Numbered from the stretch's first letter, positions 6,205 through 51,983 are shown. The stretch: 64,000 nt of DNA from Gaiellaceae bacterium (GCA_045805965.1 JBJMKF010000016.1:30908-94907), one strand, 5' to 3'. A program made the numbers and translations. Notes: generated from the letters alone by a model not told the origin.

Positions 6205-6213
6205 CCTGTCTCG

Positions 6214-7152
6214 GTGGCTCCACCAAGTCGCAGCGCGCGCGCGGCTGTGCTCGCCTCATCGGTTCAACGTTCGAAGCCGGCTCCGTATCCCTCGAAGGCA
6301 CGCAGCGCGCTTATCCGGAGGACGGTCGTCGTCGTCCTCGTTCTCGTCGCGCTGACGCTCGTGACGATCTCGTTCCGCTCGCCCACGGCCGGAGCGCTGC
6401 ACGACATCCAAGGTGCAGGCTCGACCGCGCTGCGCCCCTTCCAGATCGCAGCGACGCGGGTCGCACAGCCGTTCCGTGACGCATACAACTACATCGACGG
6501 CCTTACCACGGCAAAGGCGGAAAACAAGAAGCTGAAGAAGGAGCTCATCCAGTACCGGGCTGCGCAGATCAGGGCGAGCGCTGCGGCGGCCAAGGAGCAG
6601 CAGCTCGAGAGGCTCCTCCATTTCGAACGACTCCCGCGCTTCCCGAACAACTACCGGGCCATCAACGCCGAGGTCACCTCGTTCCCTTCCGGCCCCTTCA
6701 CGCACACGCTGACGATCGCCGCAGGCTCCTCCGCGGGCGTTCGCCTGAACTCGGCGGTCGTGAGTGGCTACGGCCTCGTCGGGATCGTGTCGAACGTCTT
6801 CCCGGACACGGCGATCGTGACGCTGATCAGCGATCCGGACACCTTCGTCGCCGCGCGGGACCTGCGGACGCGCGTGCGCGGTGTTGTCGGCACGGGAGCG
6901 GGTGGGACGCTGATCCTCGACCACGTGTCGAAGACTGAGGTCGTCAGGCAGGGCGACACGATCGTCACCGATGGGACGCACAACGCGCGCTATCCGGATC
7001 TCTACCCGTACGGGATCCCGATCGGCCGAGTCTCGGCACCCCCCGGCGTCACCGACACGGCGAACTTCCTCCAGGTGCAGGTGCAGCCCTTTGCGAACCT
7101 CGGCTCGCTCGACGCGGTAGGAGTACTCGTCCCCACGCACCAGCGCCGATGA
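6214..7152 (+). CDS. mreC: Rod shape-determining protein MreC
   Basis: N-terminal TM segment, a coiled-coil stretch (KAENKKLKKELIQYRAAQ), then beta-rich domains. Position between mreB and mreD. Confidence 0.85.
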   Translation: MAPPSRSARAAVLASSVQRSKPAPYPSKARSALIRRTVVVVLVLVALTLVTISFRSPTAGALHDIQGAGSTALRPFQIAATRVAQPFRDAYNYIDGLTTAKAENKKLKKELIQYRAAQIRASAAAAKEQQLERLLHFERLPRFPNNYRAINAEVTSFPSGPFTHTLTIAAGSSAGVRLNSAVVSGYGLVGIVSNVFPDTAIVTLISDPDTFVAARDLRTRVRGVVGTGAGGTLILDHVSKTEVVRQGDTIVTDGTHNARYPDLYPYGIPIGRVSAPPGVTDTANFLQVQVQPFANLGSLDAVGVLVPTHQRR

Positions 7153-7673
7153 GCTTGCTCGACGGCGTCAAGGCCGCCGTACTGCTCTTTGTGGCGGCGA
7201 TCGCGCAGGTCTCGATCTTCTCCCAGGCCCACGTCTTCGGCGCCGTCCCCGACTTCCTGCTCGTCTCGCTCGTCGCGCTCGCCCTGCTGCGCGGCAGCGT
7301 CGCGGGCGCAGTCGGAGGCTTTTTCGCGGGGCTCCTCGTCGATACTGCATCGCTCGGCACGCTCGGGCTCACGTCGCTCGTGCTCACGCTCGCCGGCTAC
7401 TGGATCGGTCGCTACGGAGAGACGACCGGCCGCGATCGCGCGCACGCACCGTTCCTCTCGATCGCCGTCGTGACCGTTCTCTACGAGCTCGGCTTGCTCG
7501 TGGTGCATTTCGTGCTCGGCGAGAGCGCGCCGGCCGCAGCAGTCGTGCGCAGCCTCGTCCCGGCGATCGTCCTCAACCTGATCCTCACCGCGCCGGTCTA
7601 CGCACTCGCGCGGCGGCTGCTGCGGCCGGCTGAGCGGGCCGAGCTCAGCGCGGAGGTGCAGCTCCTTGGCTAG
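7149..7673 (+). CDS. mreD: Rod shape-determining protein MreD
   Basis: ATGA overlap with the mreC stop. Polytopic hydrophobic 174-aa protein in the canonical position. Confidence 0.75.
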   Translation: MSLLDGVKAAVLLFVAAIAQVSIFSQAHVFGAVPDFLLVSLVALALLRGSVAGAVGGFFAGLLVDTASLGTLGLTSLVLTLAGYWIGRYGETTGRDRAHAPFLSIAVVTVLYELGLLVVHFVLGESAPAAAVVRSLVPAIVLNLILTAPVYALARRLLRPAERAELSAEVQLLG

Positions 7674-9708
7674 CACCACGACGCGGCGACTCCCTCTGCC
7701 ACCGTCGCGCCGCGCACGCGTGGAGGAGCCGGACGCCGAGCAGACCGCGGTCGAGCCCTATCGGCTGACGCCCAAGCTCGCGCGACGAGTGGCGCTGCTC
7801 GGAGGCCTTGTCGTGATCGGTTTTGCGGCGCTCGTCGGGCGGCTCTGGGCGTTACAGGTGCTCGCAGGACCGAACTACGCCGCACGTGCGCAGGCGAACC
7901 AGGTACGCAGCGTGCGCGTCGAGGCGCCGCGCGGGCAGATCGTCGACCGGAATCGCAACGTCCTCGTGACGAACAAGCCGGTCACCGCGGTCGAGCTCTG
8001 GCCGTCGGGCCTGCCGAAGGTCTACTCGCGCCGCGTGGCCGAGCTCCGTGAGCTCGCACAGATCACGCGCGTGAACGTCCGTCAGGTGACCAGACTGATC
8101 CTCGCGCGTCGCCAGATGGGGGACATGCTCGACCCGGTCGTCGTGCGCCCCGATGCACCGGCGCCGATGCTGACGTACCTGCAGGAGCGAGCCGCCAACT
8201 TCCCGGGCCTGACGCTCGCGCGGAGCTACGTCCGCCGTTATCCGCACGGAGATCTCGCCTCACAGTTGCTCGGTTACGTCGGGCCGATCTCAGCGCCGGA
8301 GCTGCAGACCCTGGGGAAGGACGGCTATGCGCTGACCGACGTGATCGGGCAGACGGGAATCGAGGCGACCTACAACAAGTACCTCTTCGGCATTCCCGGT
8401 GCGGCGCGCGTCCGCGTCGATTCCCTCGGCCGTCCTCGCAGCGCGCGCACCCTGACGACCCAGCCGCAGGCGGGGCAGACTGTCCGTCTCACCATCGACA
8501 CCGGCCTGCAGCTCGCCGCCCAGAACGCGCTGGACTACGGCATCCAGACCGCCCGCAACGAGGGCAAGTGGGCGGCCGACGGCGGCGCGATCGTTGCCAT
8601 GAGCCCGAAGGACGGCTCGATCCTCGCGCTCGCCTCCTCGCCGACGTACGACCCGTCCGTCTACACCGGGCGCGTTACGACCGGCAAGCTCAAGGCGCAG
8701 GGGCTCGTTGGAGCGTCGGCTTTCGACAAGAACTACCCGTCGCTCGACCGCGCGCTCGACGCCACGTATCCGCCCGGCTCGACGTTCAAGCCGCTCACGG
8801 CGATCGCGGCGCTCGAGGAGCATCTGATCAAGCCGTACGCCTTCTATCCCTGCACCGGCACGTACACCTCGCCGGACGACAACTCGCATCACGTCTTCCA
8901 CAACTGGGACAAGTTCGTCGACCAGGGGATGGATCTGCCGACCGCGCTCGCGCGGTCGTGCGACACGTACTTCTATCGCGCCGGGAACGCGTTCTACGAA
9001 CTGCCGAAGGACCGCGGTCAGCCGCTACAGAAGTGGGCCCGCGCGTTCGGCTTCGGACGGCCCAGCGCCGTGGACGTCGGCCCCGACGTCGGCGGCACCG
9101 TCCCGACGATCGCCTACAAGCACAGGAGATTCACGAAGGCAGACGATCCGAACTGGCAGATCGACCGCCTCTGGAAGCCCGGCGACTCGATCACCCTCGC
9201 GATCGGCCAGGGCGACCTGCTCGTGACGCCGCTGCAGATGACGCGCTTCTACGCGGCGATCGCGAACGGCGGCCAGCTCGTCACGCCCCACGTCCTGCTG
9301 AACGTCGAGAACCCGAACGGGACGATCGTCCCGACGACGCCTCCGCCGGCCCGGCGACCGGTCCCGGGTCTCGATCGTGCCTACGTCAAGGTCGTCCAGC
9401 AGGGCCTCTTCCAGGCGACGCACGATGCGTATGGGACGTCGTTCGGCGTCTTCGGCAACTTCCCGTACCCGATCGCCGGTAAGACGGGCACCGCGCAGAA
9501 GACCGTCAGTCTTCCGGGCTACACGGGTGAGCAGGACCAGTCGTGGTGGTGCGGCTATGGTCCCGCGAACCATCCGAAGCTCGTCGTGTGCGCCATGATC
9601 GAGAACGGCGGCGAGGGCGGCGCGGCTGCGGCGCCGGCTGCAGAGCGGGTCTTCGCGAAGTTCTTCCACGTGCACGCGACACAACCAGTACTCATCCCCT
9701 CCGACTGA
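7666..9708 (+). CDS. mrdA: Penicillin-binding protein 2 (elongasome transpeptidase)
   Basis: TTG start overlapping the mreD stop. Motifs PPGSTFKP (SxxK) and AGKTGTAQ (KTG). Confidence 0.9.
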   Translation: MASTTTRRLPLPPSRRARVEEPDAEQTAVEPYRLTPKLARRVALLGGLVVIGFAALVGRLWALQVLAGPNYAARAQANQVRSVRVEAPRGQIVDRNRNVLVTNKPVTAVELWPSGLPKVYSRRVAELRELAQITRVNVRQVTRLILARRQMGDMLDPVVVRPDAPAPMLTYLQERAANFPGLTLARSYVRRYPHGDLASQLLGYVGPISAPELQTLGKDGYALTDVIGQTGIEATYNKYLFGIPGAARVRVDSLGRPRSARTLTTQPQAGQTVRLTIDTGLQLAAQNALDYGIQTARNEGKWAADGGAIVAMSPKDGSILALASSPTYDPSVYTGRVTTGKLKAQGLVGASAFDKNYPSLDRALDATYPPGSTFKPLTAIAALEEHLIKPYAFYPCTGTYTSPDDNSHHVFHNWDKFVDQGMDLPTALARSCDTYFYRAGNAFYELPKDRGQPLQKWARAFGFGRPSAVDVGPDVGGTVPTIAYKHRRFTKADDPNWQIDRLWKPGDSITLAIGQGDLLVTPLQMTRFYAAIANGGQLVTPHVLLNVENPNGTIVPTTPPPARRPVPGLDRAYVKVVQQGLFQATHDAYGTSFGVFGNFPYPIAGKTGTAQKTVSLPGYTGEQDQSWWCGYGPANHPKLVVCAMIENGGEGGAAAAPAAERVFAKFFHVHATQPVLIPSD

Positions 9709-41247: not shown

Positions 41248-41970
41248 TCACCACGCCGGGCGGCTCGGCGGCACTCTCGGCCGACCGCGGGCGGCGAGCA
41301 GGACGAGACCGGTCGCGAGCCCGAACGCGAACCCCCCGATGTGCGCGAAGAACGCGGTGCCGCCGCCGGACTGCGGCTGCAGGAACGTGAGCCCGCCCGA
41401 CCACAGCTGCAGACCGATCCAGATGCCGAGGAACCACACCGCCGGGATCTCGCGGATGAGGATGATCCCGAAGACGATCACCGTGAGCACGCGGGCGCGC
41501 GGGAGAAGCACGAAGTAGGCGCCGAGGACGCCGGCGATCGCGCCACTCGCACCGATGTTCGGGACGCTCGCCGCACCGACCCCGGCGAACTCCAGCGTAA
41601 CGAAGCTCTGCACCGCCATCGCCGCGATGCCAGCGACGAGGTACCAGGCAAGGAAGCCGACGTGCCCGAGCGCGTCCTCGACGTTGTTGCCGAAGATCCA
41701 GAAGAAGAGCATGTTGCCGAGGATGTGCTCCCAGCTGGCGTGCATGAACATGCCGGTGAAGACGCCCTCGTACCACGGCAGGTGGTGGAAGCCTGTCGGC
41801 AGATGGCAAGGTCCGTGGAGCGCGCACGGATAGAAGCCGTCGCGGAAGACGTGCACGTCGACGCCGGGATGGCTCAGCTCCCAGAACCAGACGAGGAAGT
41901 TCACGACGATCAGCCCGATCGTCACGAACGGCACCGTCCGTGTCGGGACGTTGTCCTTTAGCGGGAGCAT
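41248..41970 (-). CDS. Rhomboid-family intramembrane serine protease
   Basis: HASWEHILGNMLFFWIFG, GASGAIAGVLGAY (catalytic Ser), AHIGGFAFG (catalytic His). Confidence 0.85.
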   Translation of the reverse strand: MLPLKDNVPTRTVPFVTIGLIVVNFLVWFWELSHPGVDVHVFRDGFYPCALHGPCHLPTGFHHLPWYEGVFTGMFMHASWEHILGNMLFFWIFGNNVEDALGHVGFLAWYLVAGIAAMAVQSFVTLEFAGVGAASVPNIGASGAIAGVLGAYFVLLPRARVLTVIVFGIILIREIPAVWFLGIWIGLQLWSGGLTFLQPQSGGGTAFFAHIGGFAFGLATGLVLLAARGRPRVPPSRPAW

Positions 41971-43464
41971 CTAGACCGCGGCGAGCGACTCGCGGATCCG
42001 ATCCGCGACGGCCCCCAGCTCGAGTGCCTCGCCGGTGACCTCGCGGAGCAGCTCGTCCGCGGTCGGCTTCTGGCCCTCGGCCCAGAGCTCGCGCAGCAGC
42101 GAGCCGGCCTCGCGCTTCGAGAACCACGCGTTGCCGAAGCGCTCGCGCAGGTAGGTGCGCAGCTGCGCTTCGAACGCCCACGCGCGGAGGTACTGCGAGG
42201 CGTAGAACCCGTCGTCGATGTCGCCGAGGTAGTCGACCGCTGCGGGCTCGACCTTCGTCGCGCCCATGAGCAGCTCGACGTAGCGTGGGCGCAGCTCGGT
42301 CAGGTCGTCCGCGGTGTGGAACTCGAGCTCGTACAACAGCTTGGCGCAGTAGCGCCGGACGAGCCAGAGGAGCTCTGTCGCGCCTTCTGCCGCGAATTCG
42401 TACGGGCGCGGGAAGTCGAGGCGCCGCTCGAGCCAGACCGGATCGATGGTCAGATGCTCGAGCAGCATCGCCCACCCCTCGGTGACGGCGTTGTCGCCGA
42501 GCCGTCGCTCCTCCGGAGAGAGGGAAGCGGACGTGTGCGCGAAATGCTCGGTGTGGCCGGCCTCGTGGAAGAGCGTCCGCCAGTCGGCAGGGCCGCCCTG
42601 CGGCTTCATCACCAGTACGACCCTGCCCGGCACCTCGATCGGCGCGCAGAACGCGCGGGGATCCTTGTTCGGCCGCTCCTCGAGGTCGAGCTCGATGTTC
42701 TTCTGGCCGTAGAGATCGACTCCGAGCTCGGCGAGCGTTACCTCGAGGGCCGGGGCCATGGCTTCGGCGGGAAAGGCCGCGTCCCAGTCGGCGCCGCGCC
42801 ATGCCCGCCCAAGGTCCCAGCGGGCGATCTCGCCCAGGCCGATCCCGACGCGCGACCGGAAGAAGCGGTCGCCTGCCTCCTCCCACAGGTCCTCCGTCTC
42901 GGCAAGCAGGTGGCGGCACTGCTCCGCGAGGTCATCGAGGGGAAAGCCAAAGCTGCGGTACAGGTCTGCGTAGTTCGCGGCGCCGAGTCGACGCGTCTCG
43001 CGCTGGACGATCCGCGCGGCTTGCAGCTCGAGGGCATTCAGGTGCTCCTCCGTGAGCTCGTTTCTGGCCGCCTCGACCCGTGCCCGGACGTCGCGGTTCT
43101 CTTCGTTTCCGAGCCGCGGTTTGAGCATCCGGAACGGGATCTCATCGCCGTCGACGCTCGCCGTGAGAGTCGCCTCCAGCTCGGCGATGCGCTCCGCCTC
43201 CTCGCTCACGAAGTTGCCGAGATACCCCTCGCACGAGAACTTCCAGAGCTCTCGTCTGCGGTGGTCGCCGTCGACCGAGGCGCCGAGGGCAAGGGCTGTG
43301 CCGAGTTCCGTCAGGCGCTCGTGGCGCTCGTAGATCGGCGCGAGATCGTACGTCTCCTTGAGGCCCGCGAAGTGGAGGTATGTCTCCTCGCCGAGCTCCG
43401 CATGGAAGCGGTCGCCGTCCGCGCTGAGCGCCTCGATCTCACCTTGTTCGAGCGGCTCCGCCAT
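41971..43464 (-). CDS. M3-like zinc metallopeptidase (oligoendopeptidase F-like)
   Basis: ATG 43464 (MAEPLEQGEIEAL...); the ORF-track N-terminus overlaps yjbQ on the opposite strand. HEAGHTEH zinc motif. Confidence 0.7.
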   Translation of the reverse strand: MAEPLEQGEIEALSADGDRFHAELGEETYLHFAGLKETYDLAPIYERHERLTELGTALALGASVDGDHRRRELWKFSCEGYLGNFVSEEAERIAELEATLTASVDGDEIPFRMLKPRLGNEENRDVRARVEAARNELTEEHLNALELQAARIVQRETRRLGAANYADLYRSFGFPLDDLAEQCRHLLAETEDLWEEAGDRFFRSRVGIGLGEIARWDLGRAWRGADWDAAFPAEAMAPALEVTLAELGVDLYGQKNIELDLEERPNKDPRAFCAPIEVPGRVVLVMKPQGGPADWRTLFHEAGHTEHFAHTSASLSPEERRLGDNAVTEGWAMLLEHLTIDPVWLERRLDFPRPYEFAAEGATELLWLVRRYCAKLLYELEFHTADDLTELRPRYVELLMGATKVEPAAVDYLGDIDDGFYASQYLRAWAFEAQLRTYLRERFGNAWFSKREAGSLLRELWAEGQKPTADELLREVTGEALELGAVADRIRESLAAV

Positions 43465-43485
43465 GCGGGTTCGTAGGATAGACCC

Positions 43486-43884
43486 GTGCGGGAGATTTCC
43501 CTCAAGACCGATCGGAAGACGCAACTGATCGAGATCACCGATCTCGTTCGCGACGCGCTCGGCGGGACGAACGGCGCGTCGGCAGCGCTCGTCTACGTCC
43601 CGCACACGACGGCCGGCGTGGCGATCAACGAGCGTATCGACCCCGAGCTCGTGACCGACCTCGAGAACGCCTTCCAGCGCGTAGTCGGCGACGACTGGGA
43701 GTGGCGGCACGACGACCAAGACGGGCCGAACGCGCCGTCCCATGCCCGCGCCTCGCTCGCCTCGAGCCCGCAGGTGCTCATCCCGCTTCGTGAAGGGAGC
43801 CTCGCGCTCGGCACATACCAGGGCGTCTTCTTCTGCGAGTTCGACGGGCCGCGCGACCGCAAGATCTACGTGACGACGCTGTAG
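43486..43884 (+). CDS. yjbQ: YjbQ/UPF0047-family protein (secondary thiamine-phosphate synthase type)
   Basis: ALVYVPHTTAGVAINERIDPELVTDLE...NAPSHARASLASSPQVLIPLREGSLALGTYQGVFFCEFDGPR. Confidence 0.85.
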   Translation: MREISLKTDRKTQLIEITDLVRDALGGTNGASAALVYVPHTTAGVAINERIDPELVTDLENAFQRVVGDDWEWRHDDQDGPNAPSHARASLASSPQVLIPLREGSLALGTYQGVFFCEFDGPRDRKIYVTTL

Positions 43885-43922
43885 GAGGGTTCACCAAACC
43901 CTCCTGACGCTACGGTGCGCGC

Positions 43923-45302
43923 ATGGCCGCGCCCGTCACGAAGGGAGAGGAGCTCGAGCTCGACGTCGACTCGCTCGCGTACGGCGGCAACGGCGTGGCG
44001 CGGCTCGACGGCTTCGTCGTCTTCGTGCGGCGAGGCTTGCCCGGCGACCGTGTCCGGGCGCGGGTCACGAAGGTCAAGCGCAGCCATGCCGAGGCGCTCG
44101 CAACCGAGGTGCTGCGGCCGGGGCCAGAGCGGGTCGAAGCACCGTGCGCACACTTCCCCGCGTGCGGCGGGTGCCGCTTCCAGGATCTCGCGTACGAGGC
44201 GCAGCTCGAGCAGAAGCAAATGCAGGTGCGCGACGCGCTACAGCGCTTGGCGGGTATCGCCGAGCCGCCGCTCGAGCGGATCCTCCCGTGCGAACCGGAG
44301 ATCTTCCACTACCGCAACAAGCTCGAGTACTCATTTACCACGACGCCGGACGGCCCCGCGCTCGGCTTCCACCGGGCCGGCCGCTGGGACGAGGTGCTCG
44401 AGATCGAGCGCTGCTGGCTCACTGACGAGCTCGGGAACGCGATTCGCAGTGCCGTCCGCGACTGGGCGCGCGAGGAGGCGCTCGAGCCGTACTCGCAGGC
44501 CGACGGCAGCGGCTACCTCCGCCACCTCGTCGTCCGGCAGGGCCGCAACACAGGGCAGGCGCTCGTCCAGCTCGTGACCGCGCCGGGCGAGCGGTTCGAG
44601 ACCGGCTATCTCGTCGACGTTCTCCGCCGCTTCCCGGAGGTGCGCTCGATCCACTGGTCGATCAACGACACGCCCGCCGAGGTGACGAATCTCCCCACCC
44701 GGCTGCTCTGGGGAGAGGGGTGGGTCGAGGAGGAGCTTTGCGGCCTGCGTTTTCGCGTGCGTCCGAACGCGTTCCTCCAGACGAATACGGCTATGGCCGA
44801 GCGGCTGTACGCCCTCGCACGCGACGCGGCCCAGCTCAGCGGCGAGGAGACGGTCTGGGATCTGTACTGCGGGATCGGCACCATCGGGCTCTCGCTCGCG
44901 CACGACGCCTTGACGGTCTGGGGGATCGAGGTCTCCGAGGAGTCGGTCGCCTGCGCGCTCGAGAGTGCCGAGCTCAACGGGATCACGAACGCCGCCTTCT
45001 TCGCGGGCAATGTCGGCGAGGTCGTCGAGGAGCTGCTCGAGCGCTCGGGCCCGCCGGACGTCGTCGTCGTCGACCCGCCGCGTGCGGGCCTTGCAGGCAG
45101 GGCACTACGACGGCTCGGGCGCATCGGCGCTCCGCGGCTCGTCTACGTCTCGTGCAACCCGACCACGCTCGCCGGAGACGTGAAGGCCCTTCGCGAGGAC
45201 TACGGTTACGACCTGCGGCACGTGACGCCGGTGGACATGTTCCCGCACACGCCGCACGTCGAGTGCGTCGCGCTGCTCGAGCGCGTCAGCGTGCCTGCCT
45301 GA
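43923..45302 (+). CDS. rlmD: 23S rRNA (uracil-5-)-methyltransferase RlmD/RumA family (TRAM, Fe-S and SAM-MTase domains)
   Basis: TRAM domain GGNGVARLDGFVVFVRRGLPGD; CAHFPACGGCRFQ; DLYCGIGTIG; VDPPRAGL; YVSCNPTT. Confidence 0.85.
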   Translation: MAAPVTKGEELELDVDSLAYGGNGVARLDGFVVFVRRGLPGDRVRARVTKVKRSHAEALATEVLRPGPERVEAPCAHFPACGGCRFQDLAYEAQLEQKQMQVRDALQRLAGIAEPPLERILPCEPEIFHYRNKLEYSFTTTPDGPALGFHRAGRWDEVLEIERCWLTDELGNAIRSAVRDWAREEALEPYSQADGSGYLRHLVVRQGRNTGQALVQLVTAPGERFETGYLVDVLRRFPEVRSIHWSINDTPAEVTNLPTRLLWGEGWVEEELCGLRFRVRPNAFLQTNTAMAERLYALARDAAQLSGEETVWDLYCGIGTIGLSLAHDALTVWGIEVSEESVACALESAELNGITNAAFFAGNVGEVVEELLERSGPPDVVVVDPPRAGLAGRALRRLGRIGAPRLVYVSCNPTTLAGDVKALREDYGYDLRHVTPVDMFPHTPHVECVALLERVSVPA

Positions 45303-46002
45303 ACCGTCGCCAGAGGAGGTCGGCGTTCGCGAGGAGGAAGCCGAAGGAGAGGAAGGGCAGCGCGGGCAGGCCGTTGACGTCTGTGAGGTTGGCGATCACG
45401 AGAGTCAGCGAATACATCCCCGTCATCGCAAGCCACGTCCACAAAGGCCGAAGCCTCCACCGCACCGTCGCAGCGAGGAAGAGGGCGAAGAAGAGAATGT
45501 CCGGTGGCCCGAGGTCTGCGGCCAGGCCGCCGGGTGCGAGGAAGGCGACCGCGACGGCCGAGTAGACCTCGAAGTGATGGTTGACGATGGCCTTCGTCGG
45601 CCCGGCGGCGACCGAGATCGCGTCGACGAAGGGGATGATCGCGGCGACGATGATCACCCAGCTGAGCGCCTCGAACAGCCAGAGGAACGCCCAGCCGGCG
45701 CAGGTGTAGGCGCCGAGCTTCGCGAAGTTCGAGGCGAGGTGCGAGTTCAGCTCCCAGCTCACGACGGCGGCGACGCCGAACGCGGCCCCGACGACGATGA
45801 TCCAGCGGCGTGACCAGAGCGGCAGTGCGAGGAGGATCAGACCCAGCGTCGCGGGCATCACTCCCGCCGCGATGACCGCGACCGTCGGCCAGAGCGAGAG
45901 CTCGTCGACGTGGGGCGCGACGGCATCCCACGTCACGACCGCCGCGGCGAGCACGACGAAGGCGCCGACGCGGCTCAGTACGGAGGCGTCTCGCTCCACC
46001 AT
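45286..46002 (-). CDS. Polytopic integral membrane protein, unknown function
   Basis: Six or seven hydrophobic segments. 28-nt overlap with the upstream UDG-like gene. Confidence 0.6.
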   Translation of the reverse strand: MVERDASVLSRVGAFVVLAAAVVTWDAVAPHVDELSLWPTVAVIAAGVMPATLGLILLALPLWSRRWIIVVGAAFGVAAVVSWELNSHLASNFAKLGAYTCAGWAFLWLFEALSWVIIVAAIIPFVDAISVAAGPTKAIVNHHFEVYSAVAVAFLAPGGLAADLGPPDILFFALFLAATVRWRLRPLWTWLAMTGMYSLTLVIANLTDVNGLPALPFLSFGFLLANADLLWRRFRQAR

Positions 46003-46559
46003 TCGCCGAGCACCTTGAAGGCGTTCCAGAACGCCGTCTTCGCCGGCTGCTCGTCGAGCGAGGAGTCGATGTCGGGCGTGACGAGCCCCTGGATCGTCGG
46101 CGTGTACTCCTGGAGCTCGCCCTCGGCCGGCTTCAACTCGCGCGAGAGCGGGAAGCGTGCCGCGTTGAGGAAGTCGAGCGCGGACGGGCCCATCGCGACC
46201 ACGAGCTTCGGCTGCACGATGTGCAGCTCGCGCAGGAGGTACGGCTGCGACTCCTCCTCGTCGCCTCCGGCGAACTTGAGGCAGTTCGTCCCGTAGATCG
46301 CCATCGGGTCGACGTGCAGGCGCTGCAGGGACTTGAGGAGCGCGTTGCCGGCGCGACCGTAGAAGGCGACGCCCTCCTGCAGCTCCGATGACTGCGGCGC
46401 GTACTTGAGGAGGAAGACGTCCGCCAGCGGATGGCCCGAGCCGAGCACGGGAACCCGCGCCCCGCCCGCGGCTTGCGCAAGCTCGTCACCGAGAGCGTTG
46501 CTCTCGGTGATCGCCTTTTGCAGGTATTTCTCGTAGATCTCGTCGTTCGCCACGGTCAC
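45975..46559 (-). CDS. Uracil-DNA-glycosylase-superfamily-like protein with divergent motifs
   Basis: GTG start. VPVLGSGHPLADVFLLKYAPQSSELQEGVAFYGRAGNALLKSL...KLVVAMGPSALDFL follows the family-4/5 fold layout. The GE[AQ]PG and HPS motifs are not conserved. Confidence 0.5.
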   Translation of the reverse strand: MTVANDEIYEKYLQKAITESNALGDELAQAAGGARVPVLGSGHPLADVFLLKYAPQSSELQEGVAFYGRAGNALLKSLQRLHVDPMAIYGTNCLKFAGGDEEESQPYLLRELHIVQPKLVVAMGPSALDFLNAARFPLSRELKPAEGELQEYTPTIQGLVTPDIDSSLDEQPAKTAFWNAFKVLGEWWSETPPY

Positions 46560-46739: not shown

Positions 46740-48467
46740 TTAGCGCACCCGCTCCTTGGCCTGGGCGACCCACTTGAGACCCTGGAGATAGACGAGCGAC
46801 TTCGGGCGACGGAGCACCTCGGCGTCGTGAAGTGAGACGAGGAACTCCTCGGGGCCGCTGAAACGGCGCATCCGGACGGCGCCCGTGCCGACCCCGGCGA
46901 GTACGTGGGCGTCTGATCCGGCGCCCGGCGTGAGGTTGTACTTGCGGGCGAAGCGAAGCGCTTCCTCGTTGTACGCCTCGAAGAGGAGCCGGGCGTTGTA
47001 GACCTCGAGCACGTCGATCTCCGCCAGATGGCGGTGCAGCGTGGCCGGCTCAGGGATCGCGTGCAAGCGGTCGAACGGGTGCGGGAGGTAGACGAGGCCG
47101 CCCTGCGCGCGGATGGCGGCAATGGTCTCGCCGAAGGACATGCCTCGCGGGATCTCTTCCCGCAGGAAGAGCCCGATCACCTCTCCTTGGTCGGCCGTCT
47201 TCACCTCCTCGCCCGGAATGACGACGACGCGGCGGCTGCGAGCGCGTTCCACTGCCTCGAGCGCGCCGCCGAAAACGTTGTGGTCGGTGACCGCGATCGC
47301 GCCGAGCCCCTGTGCCTCGGCGTGGTCGAGCAGCTCGTCGACGTCGATCGAGCAGTCGTGCGACCAGCTCGTGTGCAGGTGGAGGTCGGCGATCACCCAG
47401 TCGCGCTCCTCGAGCGGTCGGCGGGAGGCCGGGGCACGCCGCCGCGAGGCGAGCCGCTCGTACACCTCTTCGACGTGGTCGGCGAGGGATCCGACCGTCT
47501 GCGACCCAGCCGCCGTGAGTCCTTCGGCCGCCCGCCGGGCACGGAAGTCCTCGTCCTCGATCATCCGCGCCGTCTCGGCGGCGGCGAGCTCAGGCTGCGC
47601 GTCGCGCCCCGGCGGAGCGGCGATCGCGGCGCCGGCAGTCTGCGCCTCGGCGATCAGGCGCGGTAGCCCGTCGACGGAGGGAACGAAAATCGCGGCGGAA
47701 GGGAGCAGTTCCGCGCGGGTGCTGCCGGTGCGGGCGGTGCGGACTCGCATCCGTCCTCTGAGCCGCGGGGAGACTGCAGGCCGGGAGGCGGGCGTGCGGA
47801 TCCGCAGCAGCACGAGCTCCCAACCGGGCTGTTGCGCGAGCTCGCGCACGAGGGCCCGCAGGAGCGGCCTCTCGGTCTGTCGCCACTCCATTACTACGAG
47901 CTTCTTCTTCGTGGCAGGGGCGAACAGCTCGGGATCGATCCCGTGCGGCACGAGCTCGTAGCGGCCGGGAAAGCGGGTCGCGGCGGCTTCGGCGACTTCC
48001 TCGTTCGTCGCGAGCAGTGCGTCGACGCGGCCCAGTAGGCGCTCGCGCTGCGCGCGCCCCGGGGGATAGCCGAGGCGTTCGTGCGAGAAGAACGTCGCAG
48101 CCGTCAGCGCCGCCGAGTCGCGGAGAGCCAGATACGACAGGCTGGGCAGGCCCGGCTCGAATCCGTGCACGACGTCGAACCGACCCCGGGCGAGAGCCAG
48201 CGAAAGGCTCGCCCGGACTCCGACCGGGACGCCCATTCGGCTGCGGCGCGAGATCGGCACGGCTGGGCCGAGGGCGATCAGCTCCTGGTCGTCGAAGGTT
48301 CCCAATAGGGCGCGCCGCCCGGCCGCGAGGTCGCGCGCGCGGTTCGAGGGAGCCAGCACGGTGACTTCGTGCTTGCGGGTGCGCAGCTCACGCGCAAGCC
48401 CGTCCACGTGCTCGTTGACGTCGTGCGGCTGCGACCAGGCGAACGGCGTGACGAGCGCGATCCGCAC
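46740..48467 (-). CDS. GT4 glycosyltransferase (PimA-like) fused to a C-terminal PHP-family phosphoesterase domain
   Basis: MRIALVTPFAWSQPHDVNEHVDGLARELRTRKHEVTVLAP is a GT-B N-terminus. From about residue 345: DWVIADLHLHTSWSHDCS...AIAVTDHN...PGEEV...LPHPFD...GSDAH, the PHP metal-ligand pattern. Confidence 0.8.
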   Translation of the reverse strand: MRIALVTPFAWSQPHDVNEHVDGLARELRTRKHEVTVLAPSNRARDLAAGRRALLGTFDDQELIALGPAVPISRRSRMGVPVGVRASLSLALARGRFDVVHGFEPGLPSLSYLALRDSAALTAATFFSHERLGYPPGRAQRERLLGRVDALLATNEEVAEAAATRFPGRYELVPHGIDPELFAPATKKKLVVMEWRQTERPLLRALVRELAQQPGWELVLLRIRTPASRPAVSPRLRGRMRVRTARTGSTRAELLPSAAIFVPSVDGLPRLIAEAQTAGAAIAAPPGRDAQPELAAAETARMIEDEDFRARRAAEGLTAAGSQTVGSLADHVEEVYERLASRRRAPASRRPLEERDWVIADLHLHTSWSHDCSIDVDELLDHAEAQGLGAIAVTDHNVFGGALEAVERARSRRVVVIPGEEVKTADQGEVIGLFLREEIPRGMSFGETIAAIRAQGGLVYLPHPFDRLHAIPEPATLHRHLAEIDVLEVYNARLLFEAYNEEALRFARKYNLTPGAGSDAHVLAGVGTGAVRMRRFSGPEEFLVSLHDAEVLRRPKSLVYLQGLKWVAQAKERVR

Positions 48468-48478
48468 GCTGATCGAGT

Positions 48479-49276
48479 CTAGTGCTCCTCGAGCTCGAGC
48501 AACATCTCGTGCTGACGAACGACGACCGTCGCGCCGAGCGAGCGAAATGCCGTCGCGGCCGGGTCGTCGTCGGGCAGATTGAGGATGCTGACCGGTCCGA
48601 GGCTTCGAAGCCCACGAAGCAGTGGCGCCGCGTCGCCGGCGATCTGGACGACTTGGAGGTTCTCGCCGGGCTGTCGGTAGACGGCCGCGCCCCCGTCAGT
48701 GACGAGCCCGCGCGCGTCGTCGTAGTGGGCGAGGCTCGCGTCGGCGCGCTGCCACGGCTCACGCTCCGTTCGCCGCTCGCGGACCTTCTCGTGAGCTTCT
48801 GCGGCCGGGACTTCACGCGCCGCCGGCTCGCCGTCTTCTGCGGCGGAGAGCGACCAGACCTCGACGTCGCGAAGAGTCCGGTAGCCGAGTTTCTCGTAGA
48901 GCGCGAAGGCACCGGTGTTCTCGACGATCACCTCGAGCCACACGCGCCGGATGCAGCGCTCCCGCGCCTGCTCGTGCAGCGCGCGCATGAGCGTCTCGCC
49001 CACACCCGTCCGGCGCGCGGTGGTAACCACCCCGACGCCGCCGATCCAGGCGTCCTCCCCACGAATACCGAGATTGCCGAGCCCCACAGCCTCCCCGTCG
49101 CGGAAGGCGATTCGCGAGGCGTCGGCATCGAGATCGAACGCCTCGCGCATCGCCGCGACGGTGTCCTCGTCGATGTGAAACGGAATGAGGTAGCCCTCGT
49201 ACGCAGCGTTGAAGAGCGCCGCGTACTCGGCGAGGCCGAGCGAGCGCGCCGGCAGGAGCGCCAGTTCGTCGGTCAC
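48479..49276 (-). CDS. GNAT-family acetyltransferase with an extra C-terminal domain
   Basis: GTG 49276 (VTDELALLPARSL...). WIGGVGVVTTARRTGVGETLMRALHEQARERCIRRVWLEVIVENTGAFALYEKLGY. Confidence 0.7.
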   Translation of the reverse strand: MTDELALLPARSLGLAEYAALFNAAYEGYLIPFHIDEDTVAAMREAFDLDADASRIAFRDGEAVGLGNLGIRGEDAWIGGVGVVTTARRTGVGETLMRALHEQARERCIRRVWLEVIVENTGAFALYEKLGYRTLRDVEVWSLSAAEDGEPAAREVPAAEAHEKVRERRTEREPWQRADASLAHYDDARGLVTDGGAAVYRQPGENLQVVQIAGDAAPLLRGLRSLGPVSILNLPDDDPAATAFRSLGATVVVRQHEMLLELEEH

Positions 49277-49416
49277 GCTAGGTCTCGCAGATTCCCGGCG
49301 TGCGGAAGACGAGCAGACCGACGGCGCAGGCAAGCGCCGGTTACCGTCGCCAGGATCGGGACGAGGACCGCGAGCGGTGTCAGCAACCTCCCCGCCGCCA
49401 CCGCCCGCGTGACCAT
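49273..49416 (-). CDS. Candidate 47-aa membrane micro-protein
   Basis: Below the ORF-track length cutoff. ATG 49416 lies 6 nt after the ino1 stop. MVTRAVAAGRLLTPLAVLVPILATVTGACLRRRSARLPHAGNLRDLA. Its TGA overlaps the GNAT GTG start (GTGA). Confidence 0.3.
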   Translation of the reverse strand: MVTRAVAAGRLLTPLAVLVPILATVTGACLRRRSARLPHAGNLRDLA

Positions 49417-49422
49417 CGGCTC

Positions 49423-50565
49423 TTAGACCTCTGCCGGAGCCTCGTGCTTCGCGGCGACGCGTGCGTTCTCGCGGATGAACTCCTCGGTCAGCTCGTACGC
49501 CTCGTCGTCGACGATCTGCTTCGGCGGCGACTTCATGAGGTACGAGCTCGGGCCGATGAGCGCGCCCGAGACGCCATTGTTGAGCGCGAGCTTCGAGAGG
49601 CGGACAGCGTCGATCACGATTCCGGCCGAGTTGGGTGAGTCCCAGACCTCGAGCTTGAGCTCGACGTTGAGCGGGACGTCGCCGAACGACGAGCCCTCCA
49701 TTCGGATGTAAGCCCACTTGCGGTCGGTCAGCCACGGCACGTAGTCGGAGGGGCCGACATGGACGTTCCCGGGGCCGAGGTCGTAGTCGAGCATCGACGT
49801 AACGGCGTTCGTTTTCGAGATCTTCTTCGACTCGAGGCGCTCCCGCTCGAGCATGTTGAGGAAGTCGGAGTTGCCGCCGACGTTGAGCTGCATCGTCTTG
49901 TCGAGATGCACGCCGCGCTCGCGGAAGAGCGAGGTCAGCACACGGTGCGTGATCGTGGCGCCGACCTGCGACTTGATGTCGTCGCCGATGATCGGCAAGC
50001 CCTTCTCCGTGAACCGCTTGCCCCAGTAGTCCTCGCGGGCGATGAAGACCGGCATGCAGTTCACCATCGCGCAGCCGGCCTCGAGGATCTGCTCGGCGTA
50101 CCACTTGGTCGCCGCCTCGGAGCCCACCGGGAGGTAGTTGACGACGACATCGGTCTTCGTCTCCTTGAGGATCCCAACCACGTCGTCCGTCTTACCGTGC
50201 GCCTTTTCGACGACCTGAGACAGGTACTTGCCGAGGCCGTCGTGCGTCATGCCGCGCGAGACCTTGACGCCGGTCTGCGGCACATCGGCGAACTTGATCG
50301 TGTCGTTCGGATGCGCCCACATCGCTTCGGCGAGATCCTCGCCGACCTTGCCTTTGACGACGTCGAAGGCGGCGGTGAACTCCACGTCCCGGACGTGGTA
50401 GCCGCCGAGGTTGACGTGCATGAGGCCCGGCACGAACTGGTCGTCGGGCGCGTCCTTGTAGTACTCGACGCCCTGGAGCAGCGAGTTCGCGCAGTTCCCG
50501 ACGCCGATGATCGCGACGCGGACCTTGCCGTCGTCGAGCCTTGCCCTACCGTTCGTTGCTGCCAC
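49423..50565 (-). CDS. ino1: myo-Inositol-1-phosphate synthase
   Basis: GTG 50565 after [30 protein letters not shown]...[10 protein letters not shown]...[13 protein letters not shown]...[10 protein letters not shown]...SKKISKT. Confidence 0.9.
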
Positions 50566-51208
50566 TGGTTCCTCCAGAAAGTTGCTTGCGGACGTGCAGG
50601 ATGCGCTGGACGACCGTGAGCCAGGCGGTCGCCGCCAGCGCGACGATCGCCCAGGGCAGGCCGCCCCATGGCGCGAAGATGAGACCGGCGGTGATGAGCA
50701 CGACGCGCTCCGCGCGCGAGCCCAGGCCGACGTCGCCGCGCAATCCAAGTGCCTCTGCGCGGGCGCGGGTATAGGAAACAAGGAAGGAACCGACGACTGC
50801 CACGACCGCGAGCACGACCGCCCAGTCCTTCCCGTGTCGCGAGAAGACGAGCGCGATCGCGGCGAGCATCGCGCCCTCTCCGACCCGGTCTGTCGTGGAG
50901 TCGATGAACGCCCCGAACGGGGTGGTCTTGCCGCCAACGCGAGCGAGGGCGCCGTCGAGGATGTCGAGCAGCGAGCCGACCACGAAAGTGCCGGCGGCCA
51001 GCCAGAAGAAGAGGAGCGTTCCGTGATCCTCGAACGGAACGAGGATCGCAGCCGCCAGGCAAAGCGAGACGCCGGTGGCCGTGAGGACGTTCGGCGTGAC
51101 GCCGGTGCGGGCGAGGCTCGTGACCGAGCGGCTTGCGAGGGAGCGCGCTCCACTCGTGTAGCCATGCTTGACGCGGCGGAGCCTGGGGGTCGCGTTCATC
51201 TCCAACAT
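50546..51208 (-). CDS. CDP-alcohol phosphatidyltransferase family protein (PIP-synthase or DIPP-synthase type)
   Basis: [30 protein letters not shown] matches D-G-x2-A-R-x8-G-x3-D-x3-D. Overlaps the ino1 start by 20 nt. The start is ATG 51208 or 51199. Confidence 0.85.
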
Positions 51209-51227
51209 AGCATTCCTGCTATGTCGA

Positions 51228-51983
51228 CTATAGCAGGTTTGCGATAGCGGGGCCAAGCCCGCGAACACGCTCGAGAAGCCGTGGCGACCACGCTGTAGCG
51301 AGCAGCGCGGTGACTGCGACGCCGATCCCCGCGACGACGTCGAGGAGGTAGTGGTTCGCGGTCGCGACGACGCAGAACCAGACCCAGAGAGGCCAGAGCG
51401 CCCAGAGCGTCTTCGCCCAGACCGTCCTCGAGGTGGACACGAGGAACCAGCCAACGATGAGCGCGTCCGCCGCATGCAGGCTCGGCATCGCCGCGTACGG
51501 ATTGCCCAGCGTCTTCAGAAGCGCGCTCGAATGATTGACGCCGTCGACGAATCCCATGTGCGGGAACATCCAGGGCGGTGCGGTCGGCATCAGAGCGAAG
51601 CCGAGGAGCCCGATGAGGTTGGCGAGCAGAATCGTGTTCCGGAAGCGGCTGAAGCCTTCGTGCCGGCGGAGGTAGACCCAGAGCAGTGCCAGGCCGATCA
51701 CGGTGAACTCCGAGTTCCAGTATGTCCACGCCGCAGCGGTTATGAGCAGAGAGGAGGAGTCGGCGACGCGCTCCACGGTCAGCTCGAAGAGGTGATGCGT
51801 CATCCGTTGCTCGAGCGAGATCACGCGCAGCCCGTTCCCGAGAGCCTTGCCCGGGGTTGCGTACGTGAGGTGCCTGACCCCGAGGTACGAGAAGTAGAAC
51901 CCGAACCAGATGACGAGTTGGATTCCGAAGTGCCGCCAACCGCGCGGCAACACACGACGTCCCAGCGCCGCGACTCGCTCCAT
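51228..51983 (-). CDS. PAP2-superfamily membrane protein (PAP2_3 / AUR1-IPC-synthase-like)
   Basis: Multi-TM protein. YAAMPSLHAADALIV and VVATANHYLLDVVAG resemble the PAP2 C2/C3 motifs (SxH ... H-x3-D). Confidence 0.7.
   Translation of the reverse strand: MERVAALGRRVLPRGWRHFGIQLVIWFGFYFSYLGVRHLTYATPGKALGNGLRVISLEQRMTHHLFELTVERVADSSSLLITAAAWTYWNSEFTVIGLALLWVYLRRHEGFSRFRNTILLANLIGLLGFALMPTAPPWMFPHMGFVDGVNHSSALLKTLGNPYAAMPSLHAADALIVGWFLVSTSRTVWAKTLWALWPLWVWFCVVATANHYLLDVVAGIGVAVTALLATAWSPRLLERVRGLGPAIANLL

Follow-up and report, generated by a model that had tools for sequence, protein, structure and literature searches.

We tentatively favour a reading of the ino1-centred region of this Gaiellaceae bacterium as a phosphatidylinositol (PI) lipid operon, for which we infer a phosphatidylinositol phosphate (PIP) substrate, a targeting role for a glycosyltransferase (GT)-like domain and a transferase role for a PAP2_3 protein. 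The GT-like domain is fused to a PHP phosphoesterase domain in one 575-residue protein. The PHP half may serve as the PIP phosphatase without being orthologous to known ones, with the GT-like half as a PimA-derived, probably non-catalytic targeting module, a proposal to which we give slightly less than an even chance.

The genes lie on the minus strand of the window (the whole 64,000-nucleotide stretch analysed) in the order PAP2_3, CDP-alcohol phosphatidyltransferase, ino1, GNAT acetyltransferase and fusion (Table 1), exactly where a previous sequence-only reading had placed them. The gap between the first two is 19 nt, and 11 nt separate the GNAT gene from the fusion. The proposed overlap of the CDP-alcohol transferase stop with the start of ino1 is exactly 20 nt, and a GGAGG precedes the GTG start. 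The members of the co-directional run were listed correctly in that reading, but the run does not end at 46740: a UDG-like gene and then a 238-residue membrane protein continue it. The 47-codon frame that it counted as a micro-ORF is probably not a gene: of 80 related loci, tblastn recovered it from just 2, each time partially. The Gaiellaceae host of the cluster is a soil actinobacterium.

Table 1. Features of the cluster, in window coordinates.
Feature	Coordinates	Strand	Size	Evidence
Polytopic membrane protein	45286..46002	-	238 aa	28-nt overlap with UDG-like gene
UDG-superfamily (family-4-like) protein	45975..46559	-	194 aa	PF03167 E 2.4e-9
GT-like/PHP fusion	46740-48467	-	575 aa	Glyco_transf_4 residues 17-180, PHP 361-428, PHP_C 499-548
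PHP phosphoesterase domain of fusion	46740..47399	-	residues 357-575 + stop codon	PF02811 E 2.2e-11; PF13263 E 2e-11
PimA-like GT-B domain of fusion	47448..48467	-	residues 1-340	PF13439 E 1.8e-16
GNAT acetyltransferase	48479..49276	-	265 aa	PF00583 E 3.7e-17
Open frame, probably not a gene	49273-49416	-	47 codons
ino1, myo-inositol-1-phosphate synthase	49423..50565	-	380 aa	PF01658 E 1e-37; GTG start
CDP-alcohol phosphatidyltransferase, PIP/AIP-synthase type	50546..51208	-	220 aa	PF01066
Inverted repeat (hairpin)	51207..51245	-		conserved
PAP2_3 (Aur1/sphingomyelin-synthase-type) membrane protein	51228..51983	-	251 aa	PF14378 E 2.5e-38

The gene identities are established at the level of families. 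Ino1 scores 545.6 bits against TIGR03450 (cut-off 638). The CDP-alcohol enzyme scores 141 and 132 bits against the NCBIfam AIP and PIP synthase models, both below the equivalog cut-offs, and 56 and 33 bits against those of DIPP synthase and PgsA. It matches the BT_1523-based NCBIfam model (E 5e-30), its best PDB match is M. tuberculosis PgsA1 (6h53, E 1.3e-23), and it carries RxxR (R165, R168) and the signature D-x2-D-G-x2-A-R...G-x3-D-x3-D; by these comparisons it groups with PIP/AIP synthases. Given this grouping, and with no cytidylyltransferase in the cluster, the soluble solute (DIP) entertained as a product in the sequence-only reading finds no support; DIP genes were not found in Gaiella occulta either (PMC6741124). 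The PAP2_3 protein matches the BT_1522-based model of Bacteroides PI-dihydroceramide synthase weakly (NF052609, E 1.5e-14). Its sole PDB match, yeast Aur1, is non-significant (E 0.7), and its PSLH and NHYLLDV segments align with the Aur1 catalytic motifs. The KX6RP motif is absent from the sequence as read. We infer that PAP2_3 is a candidate phosphoinositol transferase using PI, a phosphatase role being less likely. Sphingolipid genes were seen neither in the cluster nor in the scanned neighbouring genes.

An inverted repeat covers the PAP2_3 stop together with the start signals of the PIP synthase gene, its Shine-Dalgarno sequence and ATG. It is unique in the window, where none is expected by chance, and its arms are retained in at least 35 Gaiellales loci around a loop of 6 to 10 nt. 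The consensus fold reaches -19 kcal/mol, with covariation almost nil. A hexamer pair resembling a promoter lies at 51256-51227.

The inositol-lipid cluster of Bacteroides thetaiotaomicron, BT_1522-BT_1526, comprises MIPS, PIPS, an Aur1-like synthase and the PgpA-type PIP phosphatase BT_1525 (Heaver et al. 2022, PMC9246714). Since PAP2_3 is Aur1-like, of the transferase type, the window cluster would be a close analogue of this characterised system: MIPS, PIP synthase and Aur1-like phosphoinositol transferase stand together with one phosphatase gene, which however belongs to the PgpA family in Bacteroides and to the PHP superfamily here. Three of the four Bacteroides roles have homologues in the window cluster, PgpA is absent from it, and the phosphatase slot is filled by the PHP protein only, which supports the PIP phosphatase reading. 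In the proposed pathway, Ino1 would supply 1L-myo-inositol-1-phosphate, which the CDP-alcohol phosphatidyltransferase would join to CDP-diacylglycerol to give PIP; the PHP domain would strip the inositol-ring phosphate from this presumed substrate to leave PI, and PAP2_3 would probably move phosphoinositol from PI onto another lipid. The PHP domain would be a non-orthologous substitute for the Bacteroides PgpA-type enzyme and its mycobacterial counterpart.

The C-terminal half of the fusion, earlier taken for a PHP domain from its motifs (DLHLHTSWSHD at 361-371, TDHN at 394-397, GSDAH at 517-521), matches both PHP profiles (Table 1). All 78 Gaiellales sequences share H363, H365, D371, H396, E421, E429, H463, D519 and H521, and the ligand residues are nearly invariant in 27 diverse ones. 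From the motif spacing, the sixth ligand position appears to be not His but an invariant Glu (E429). Over this half the window residue is matched with a mean identity of 0.86 (window protein and 77 relatives), and the AF2 model has a pLDDT of 90.3. The PHP half is intact. Foldseek matches it to TM0559 (2anu) and RNase AM (7ug9). The domain shares the PHP barrel fold and the His/Asp/Glu metal-ligand motifs with TM0559, RNase AM/YciV (7ug9, 9etk) and the pAp phosphatase Cv1693 (2yb1), but at ~20-26% identity, and its context is lipid synthesis instead of RNA or nucleotide metabolism. TM0559, among the nearest solved relatives, is an uncharacterised protein. The PHP half reaches the cut-off of no curated family, its weak NCBIfam matches being to nucleotide or nucleic-acid PHP enzymes and to histidinol-phosphate phosphatase.

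The fusion is genuine, as the sequence-only reading assumed, and neither a frameshift nor an assembly artefact: it is full-length in 120 of 120 homologues among the matches listed, its relatives are encoded at 559 genome loci, and it occurs in hundreds of genomes of Gaiellales and Solirubrobacterales, with identity down to ~35%. The block PIPS-ino1-PHP protein-UDG-like is retained across this divergence. The pairing with ino1 highlighted in that reading recurs widely: 68 of 69 Gaiellales loci have ino1 upstream in the same orientation, and the CDP-alcohol transferase and PAP2_3 genes are upstream in 53 of the 54 with enough sequence. CDP-alcohol transferase, ino1 and fusion stay together at 34-49% fusion identity (L082, L086, L088, L092, L093, L094, L097), where the neighbours have diverged too (CDP-alcohol transferase, 43-51% identity). 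The ino1-fusion junction is loose in Gaiellaceae (median gap 1.2 kb; at most 150 nt in only 11 of 68 loci) and usually holds an inserted unrelated gene. Here this is the GNAT gene. Of the 68 Gaiellales loci with ino1 upstream, 26 have it at the junction, and no distant locus does; other lineages have unrelated genes there. Judged by this distribution it is a lineage-specific insertion, not a conserved cluster member, and its suggested analogy with MshD is not supported (22.6 bits against TIGR03448, cut-off 163).

On the other side, the UDG-like gene follows the fusion on the same strand in each of the 75 Gaiellales loci, at a median distance of 25 nt, and in 15 of the 16 distant ones, so that its linkage to the PHP gene is as tight as that of ino1. 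The 238-residue membrane protein, which has no Pfam, NCBIfam or meaningful PDB match, is retained after it in most loci. Neither the UDG-like linkage nor the Aur1-like type of PAP2_3 had been considered previously. The PHP protein might instead act on nucleic acids with the UDG-like protein (3′-phosphate/AP-site or 5′-end trimming, like PolX-PHP or RNase AM), its adjacency to ino1 being inherited synteny; we consider this unlikely, at about one chance in five. In L081 and L092 the UDG-like gene and the fusion overlap or adjoin directly, and the distant locus L081 has the pair without ino1 upstream. RNase AM, the closest characterised fold relative, acts on nucleic acids, and the weak NCBIfam matches point the same way. 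RumA, which is clearly unrelated, and the dnaK operon are also syntenic around the cluster across the class; the gene order of the region is frozen, and part of the PHP-ino1 linkage may therefore reflect inheritance and not selection. However, a nucleic-acid role gives no rationale for a PimA-derived domain on a DNA/RNA enzyme. Moreover, when the UDG-like protein is aligned with PDB 4zbx (E 6e-7), the family-4 GEAPG position aligns to KYAPQ, and the Fe-S cysteines are absent from the sequence as read, so its DNA role is only putative. In one Gaiellales clade the PHP protein stands alone, lacking the GT domain, and is encoded in a compact PAP2_3-PIPS-ino1-PHP operon, where the PHP gene lies 3-8 nt from ino1 and a looser 81-111 nt from the UDG gene. 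There, PAP2_3/CDP-alcohol transferase and CDP-alcohol transferase/ino1 each overlap in ATGA (L095/L096), and the PHP start is 3 nt past ino1 in these loci, its product 56% identical to the window PHP domain, and 8 nt past it in L090. Elsewhere the fusion starts 14 nt past ino1 and is cut off from the UDG gene by three opposite-strand genes (L094), or has no UDG gene downstream (L082/L083).

The N-terminal half had been read as a PimA-type GT4. The fold assignment holds: PimA, the GDP-mannose-dependent phosphatidylinositol alpha-mannosyltransferase, is its only PDB match (phmmer, E 1e-11) and its top Foldseek match (4n9w/2gej, E 4e-15), followed by MshA. As PimA acts on PI, this is an independent link of the fusion to PI. 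The catalytic part of the assignment is not supported. The donor-binding half, Glycos_transf_1, is unmatched in a Pfam search of the fusion, and residues that bind GDP-mannose or are critical to PimA activity (G15/G16, R196, K202, H118, E274; PMC9202250) are lost in every one of the 78 Gaiellales sequences compared: H-D stands in place of G15/G16, Q or P in place of K202 and F or L in place of H118, and R196 and E274 fall in alignment gaps. The acceptor side is better kept (Y9 to F, Q18 to N, R68 to R77, E199 to E194, R201 to R196), as are the N-terminal motif MRI..V.P[FY] and the P-I loop. Mean identity to the window residue is 0.81 in the N half and 0.64 in the C half, the donor half being the least conserved region of the fusion. 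These features describe a PimA fold with acceptor-side features that is probably non-catalytic. An active PimA/MshA-like GT that glycosylates PIP or Ins-1-P, with the PHP domain dephosphorylating the product, was the earlier idea, modelled on OtsA/OtsB, SPS/SPP and MpgS/MpgP. These systems too combine GT-B and phosphatase domains in one pathway or polypeptide, but their GT is active and makes the phosphorylated product, which in the window would come from the CDP-alcohol transferase. Such bifunctionality is improbable here despite the PIMs made by Solirubrobacter and the ~700-residue relatives P0158, P0165 and P0175, which retain GGEW/GDEW (E274) and RGDDRKG (R196, K202), P0158 lying in the same kind of cluster (L097): besides the residue losses, the GT domain is missing or halved in related clades with the operon otherwise intact. 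The window domain, in which nucleotide-sugar binding would have been lost, appears to descend from a once active PimA-PHP fusion, its motifs kept in the ~700-residue relatives and the domain dispensed with in a sister clade. Most likely it would be a peripheral-membrane module that binds the PI(P) headgroup and keeps the phosphatase at its lipid substrate. A 2026 preprint predicts a mycobacterial PimA-ML0451c-EphE complex holding a PIP phosphatase candidate (bioRxiv 10.64898/2026.07.15.738315), which fits the idea of a PimA-phosphatase fusion; both would couple the candidate physically to a PimA or PimA-like partner at the membrane, although EphE is a non-covalently bound alpha/beta-hydrolase and the PHP domain is covalently fused.

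It is more doubtful still that the PHP protein is an inositol-1-phosphate phosphatase (IMPase analogue) supplying free inositol, or an accessory to PAP2_3 as the PIP phosphatase: the PHP gene directly follows ino1 in several lineages, some PHP enzymes, histidinol-phosphate phosphatase among them, dephosphorylate small molecules, and the PAP2 superfamily includes PgpB-type lipid phosphate phosphatases, so that PAP2_3 could itself fill the role, but its motifs are of the Aur1 type without KX6RP, the PimA-like domain suggests that the substrate is a lipid and not a soluble compound, and an IMPase encoded in the operon would be in competition with the neighbouring enzyme, since bacterial PIP synthases take Ins-1-P directly (PMC4634129).

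Among the polar lipids of Conexibacter, PI predominates, and Solirubrobacter contains PI and PIM. The actinobacterial PIP phosphatase has not yet been identified in the literature (PMC4634129; PMC9246714; bioRxiv 10.64898/2026.07.15.738315), in agreement with the sequence-only reading. As a metal-dependent PHP protein adjoining PIP-making genes, the fusion is a testable candidate for this missing phosphatase step, the one that would finish PI synthesis in Actinobacteria.

The 575-aa fusion encoded in the window joins a PimA-like GT-B domain (residues 1-340) to a PHP domain (residues 357-575). Full-length copies in hundreds of independent assemblies rule out a frameshift or assembly artefact, and the fusion is full-length in 120 of 120 homologues among the matches listed. 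Relatives are encoded at 559 genome loci, the best 80 of which all belong to Gaiellales or Thermoleophilia MAGs, with 66-91% identity. When 1.84 billion cluster representatives were searched exhaustively, 417 clusters fell below the threshold of E 1e-30, with full-length fusions reaching down to ~35% identity; one of the distant full-length proteins carries the name Solirubrobacteraceae and another Thermoleophilia. The GT4-PHP fusion is real and old, and database labels for this architecture are generic only.

The C-terminal domain is recognised by Pfam as PHP (PF02811; 44.8 bits, cut-off 26.4) and as PHP_C (PF13263; 43.7 bits, cut-off 21.3). In the AlphaFold2 model of the fusion (pLDDT 90.3, pTM 0.86), it is predicted to form the distorted (beta/alpha)7 barrel of the PHP superfamily, and Foldseek matches it to TM0559 (2anu; E 3e-10, TMt 0.69) and RNase AM (7ug9; E 6e-9). 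The PHP ligand set is kept: H363, H365, D371, H396, E421, H463, D519 and H521 are invariant in all 78 Gaiellales sequences, and the same eight residues are found in at least 26 of 27 diverse fusions. E429, invariant in Gaiellales and nearly so family-wide, occupies the place of the expected sixth His; the individual metal-ligand assignments, including E429 for the usual His, are predicted from the order and spacing of the motifs. Mean identity to the window residue, taken over the window protein and 77 relatives, is 0.86 in the PHP half, 0.81 in the N half of the GT, 0.64 in its C (donor) half and 0.52 in the linker. The invariant columns lie nearly all within the PHP half in alignments of 14 and of 27 diverse fusions. 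Judged from these alignments, the GT and PHP halves evolve at very different rates. A second PHP plus PHP_C gene, stand-alone and encoding 229 aa, lies beside dnaK in the distant locus L086 (15327-16016, minus strand), ~5 kb from the fusion; such PHP paralogues could confuse phyletic profiling.

The GT half has the GT-B two-Rossmann fold with a GT4 N-terminal domain (PF13439, E 1.8e-16). The closest Foldseek matches of residues 1-340 are the PimA structures 4n9w and 2gej (E 4e-15; TMt 0.68 for 4n9w), followed by MshA, PglA and BshA, and PimA is the sole significant PDB sequence match (E 1e-11). The fusion of the window gave no Glycos_transf_1 (PF00534) match at E <= 0.01; this domain is recognisable in some distant fusions. 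In PimA, G16, R196 and K202 bind the beta-phosphate, E274, S275 and F276 the mannose and E282 the ribose; activity depends critically on Y9, Q18, R68, H118, R196, E199, R201 and E274, and H118 is critical in PimB' as well (PMC9202250). In the fusion, PimA G15G16 is replaced by H15D16 (H15 in 78 and D16 in 76 of 78 sequences), R196 falls in an alignment gap and K202 has become Q or P in the Gaiellales proteins. The E274 position is also a gap, in a loop that is 2 (HMMER) or 3 (MAFFT) residues shorter, and the neighbouring D266 is variable (D 31, E 31, A 10, others). Gaiellales proteins retain E282, which 9 of 27 diverse fusions replace by R, K, D or A; the E-x7-E motif formed by PimA E274 and E282 is absent from the window protein. 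H118 corresponds to F127 in the window protein; of the 78 Gaiellales sequences, 75 have F or L at this position, and of the 27 diverse fusions, 17 have His. Among the acceptor-side residues, Y9 is replaced by F and Q18 by N, while R68, E199 and R201 are found as R77, E194 and R196. This mapping therefore indicates that the domain has kept its acceptor/membrane side and lost its nucleotide-sugar side.

Other members of the family differ in architecture. A few homologues of ~700 aa (P0158, P0165, P0175) still carry GGEW/GDEW and RGDDRKG; some clades have the C-terminal GT half and PHP only, and others PHP alone (~225 aa). These architectures look like a decay series starting from a PimA-PHP fusion. 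Four homologues of 372-389 aa (P0404, P0406, P0409 and P0166) consist of a Glycos_transf_1 half and PHP only, which looks like an intermediate between the full fusion and stand-alone PHP.

The gene order, the 20-nt overlap between ino1 and the CDP-alcohol phosphatidyltransferase (CDP-OH) gene, and the PHP and GT motifs quoted in the sequence-only reading were all found in the window, whose G+C content is ~69% and which the names of the nearest homologues assign to a Gaiellaceae bacterium (class Thermoleophilia). The genes that it listed stand; the end point that it gave to the string does not, since a UDG-superfamily gene and a gene for a 238-aa membrane protein extend it. A 47-codon ORF listed there was rejected as a gene, having a partial match only, in 2 of 80 related loci. 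A scan of the window found no terminator-like site on the minus strand that breaks the string. The polytopic 238-aa protein is conserved at most related loci and is without relatives in Pfam, NCBIfam and the PDB; its assignment as a presenilin-like protease from the motifs FVDA, LGPPD and GLPALP found no Pfam or PDB support and was discarded. Further along the window, an ORF of 639 aa (41971-43890, minus strand) has good coding statistics, no significant Pfam family and a faint Peptidase_M3 match (E 0.003); it adjoins a rhomboid protease gene (41248-41970).

Features of the ino1 gene string, in window coordinates
Feature	Position	Strand	Evidence or remarks
PAP2_3	51228-51983	minus	PF14378, 132 bits
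Inverted repeat	51207-51245	minus	arms of ~16 nt, ATCGCAAACCTGCTAT / ATAGCAGGATTGCGAT
CDP-OH	50546-51208	minus	family search and signature
ino1	49423-50565	minus	GTG start behind GGAGG; overlap with upstream stop exactly 20 nt
GNAT	48479-49276	minus	
Fusion, 575 aa	46740-48467	minus	Glyco_transf_4 at residues 17-180, PHP at 361-428, PHP_C at 499-548
UDG-superfamily gene	45975-46559	minus	downstream of the fusion
238-aa membrane protein	45286-46002	minus	28-nt overlap with the UDG-like gene

The genomic context of the PHP gene was compared over 80 Gaiellales loci, counting informative cases only. A same-strand ino1 gene precedes the fusion in 68 of 69 loci, 53 of 54 have CDP-OH and PAP2_3, and the UDG-like gene follows in 75 of 75. 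In Gaiellaceae, the junction between ino1 and the fusion is a hot spot for insertions; it holds a GNAT gene in 26 loci and unrelated genes in others, and in other lineages a PF04185 phosphoesterase, a histidine kinase, TetR or NlpC/P60. In some Gaiellales, as in the related locus L048, an opposite-strand gene of the PF04185 'Phosphoesterase family' (~600 aa; 6190-8016, minus strand) lies between ino1 and the fusion. The same insertion is deduced from size and position in L064 (6194-7987, minus strand), the Pfam match being confirmed only for L048; this protein, of the phospholipase C / acid phosphatase type, could bear on inositol-lipid turnover.

In distant lineages, identity to the window proteins is 34-49% for the fusion, 43-51% for CDP-OH and 42-53% for RumA, yet the order CDP-OH-ino1-fusion-UDG is kept. 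It is seen in L086 (gap ~72 nt), in L088, which retains PAP2_3 too, in L092 and L093, and in L097, which is of the P0158 type. L082 and L083 keep the cluster order but lack the UDG-like gene, and in L094 the fusion follows ino1 by 14 nt and is separated from UDG by three opposite-strand genes. Among the distant loci, L081 alone lacks ino1 next to the fusion-UDG pair. The stand-alone-PHP clade is the most informative case. In L095 and L096, the PAP2_3/CDP-OH and CDP-OH/ino1 overlaps are ATGA and PHP begins 3 nt after ino1; in L090 the stand-alone PHP gene begins 8 nt past ino1.

Phosphatidylinositol (PI) synthesis in bacteria passes via phosphatidylinositol phosphate (PIP), and the mycobacterial PIMs, LM and LAM are anchored by PI. 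PI is a main polar lipid in cultured Thermoleophilia. By its model scores, the CDP-OH enzyme appears to belong to the PIP/AIP synthases (PIPSynth 131.7 bits, cut-off 170; AIP synthase 141.2, cut-off 180; PgsA 32.6; DIPP synthase 56), and among PDB entries it matches M. tuberculosis (Mt) PgsA1 best (E 1e-23). It carries the CDP-AP signature, defined as D-x2-D-G-x2-A-R...G-x3-D-x3-D (PMC4634129), the second part reading GAFIDSTTD. The RxxR is kept, R165 and R168 aligning with Mt R152 and R155. In Mt PgsA1, R155 and R195 are the arginines that bind inositol phosphate; the counterpart of R195 falls outside the aligned stretch, and R202 in 'VVQR' is a plausible equivalent. Family and motifs suggest that PAP2_3 is a transferase of the Aur1/IPC-synthase-like type: PSLH and NHYLLDV align with Aur1 S-x-H and H-x3-D, the PDB match itself being non-significant (E 0.7). 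The KX6RP motif is absent from the PAP2_3 sequence, which weakly matches the Bacteroides PI-dihydroceramide synthase model. Because of these two probable assignments, the window cluster would mirror that of Bacteroides, composed of MIPS, a PIP synthase (PIPS), an Aur1-like synthase and a PIP phosphatase (PMC9246714). The phosphatase slot is filled by a PgpA-type enzyme in Bacteroides and by PHP in the window cluster.

Other pathway assignments fell away. The GNAT, previously likened to MshD, scores 22.6 bits against a TIGR03448 cut-off of 163.1, and it was dropped as a pathway member since it is not conserved in the cluster. A soluble di-myo-inositol phosphate (DIP) route is contradicted by the lack of a cytidylyltransferase in the cluster and by an IPCT/DIPPS model score of 56 bits (cut-off 580); DIP genes were not found in Gaiella occulta (PMC6741124).

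The inverted repeat occurs at the same place in L002-L048, L052 and L070, with almost invariant arms and a loop of 6-10 nt. The PAP2_3 stop codon is located at the top of the hairpin, the AGGA Shine-Dalgarno and ATG of the putative PIPS gene are within the 3' arm, and a sigma-70-like hexamer pair (51256-51227) overlaps the repeat. Since the arms are almost invariant, covariation cannot decide its RNA structure; loop-length variation is the sole sign that favours a hairpin rather than a dimeric operator. The repeat could couple PIPS translation to PAP2_3, or be another regulatory element.

The operon structure, the PimA-like fusion and the analogy with the only bacterial cluster whose phosphatase is known make the PHP domain a candidate for the PIP phosphatase. 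It would dephosphorylate PIP to PI, with the PimA-like domain serving as a targeting module. This is the best-supported reading, to which we give slightly less than an even chance. A serious rival, albeit an unlikely one, is that PHP acts on nucleic acids together with the UDG-like protein. It stays serious because of the gap sizes (median 25 nt from fusion to UDG-like gene, versus 1.2 kb across the insertion-prone ino1-fusion junction in Gaiellaceae), the synteny of the whole region within the class, RumA and dnaK included, and the nearest characterised PHP relative, which works on RNA. However, the UDG-like protein lacks the Fe-S cysteines and reads KYAPQ (KHDPT in L095) where family-4 enzymes have the catalytic motif GEAPG; it may be no uracil-DNA glycosylase, and a PimA-derived domain is hard to rationalise in such a role. 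The bifunctional enzyme proposed in the sequence-only reading, an active GT joined to a phosphatase, fits P0158-type relatives at best and not the window protein, and is improbable.

The reading of PHP as PIP phosphatase may be extended, more tentatively, to the whole class Thermoleophilia. The enzyme would have been born as a covalent PimA-phosphatase fusion coupling dephosphorylation to the first mannosylation. Its GT half would since have been lost in a sister clade and, in Gaiellaceae, have decayed into a non-catalytic module for lipid-headgroup/membrane targeting.

The actinobacterial PIP phosphatase has been called unidentified since 2010, and still in papers of 2015, 2022 and 2026 (PMC4634129; PMC9246714; bioRxiv 10.64898/2026.07.15.738315); as late as July 2026 it was termed "as-yet unidentified" and "long-sought", and an alpha/beta-hydrolase predicted to bind PimA was put forward as the mycobacterial candidate (bioRxiv 10.64898/2026.07.15.738315). 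Our literature search for a link between PHP and PimA or PI found none. The folds and the pathway are already known; the domain architecture and the candidate assignment to the PIP phosphatase step are new. The PHP family is seen only in Thermoleophilia and therefore may not explain the mycobacterial step. The GT4-PHP fusion independently supports the idea of a PIP phosphatase working physically attached to PimA, and a soluble PHP domain of ~225 residues is a concrete and easily tested candidate. If the proposal is true, it would be a third independent solution to PIP dephosphorylation, after Bacteroides PgpA and the proposed mycobacterial EphE, and the fusion would be a clear case of a pseudo-glycosyltransferase.
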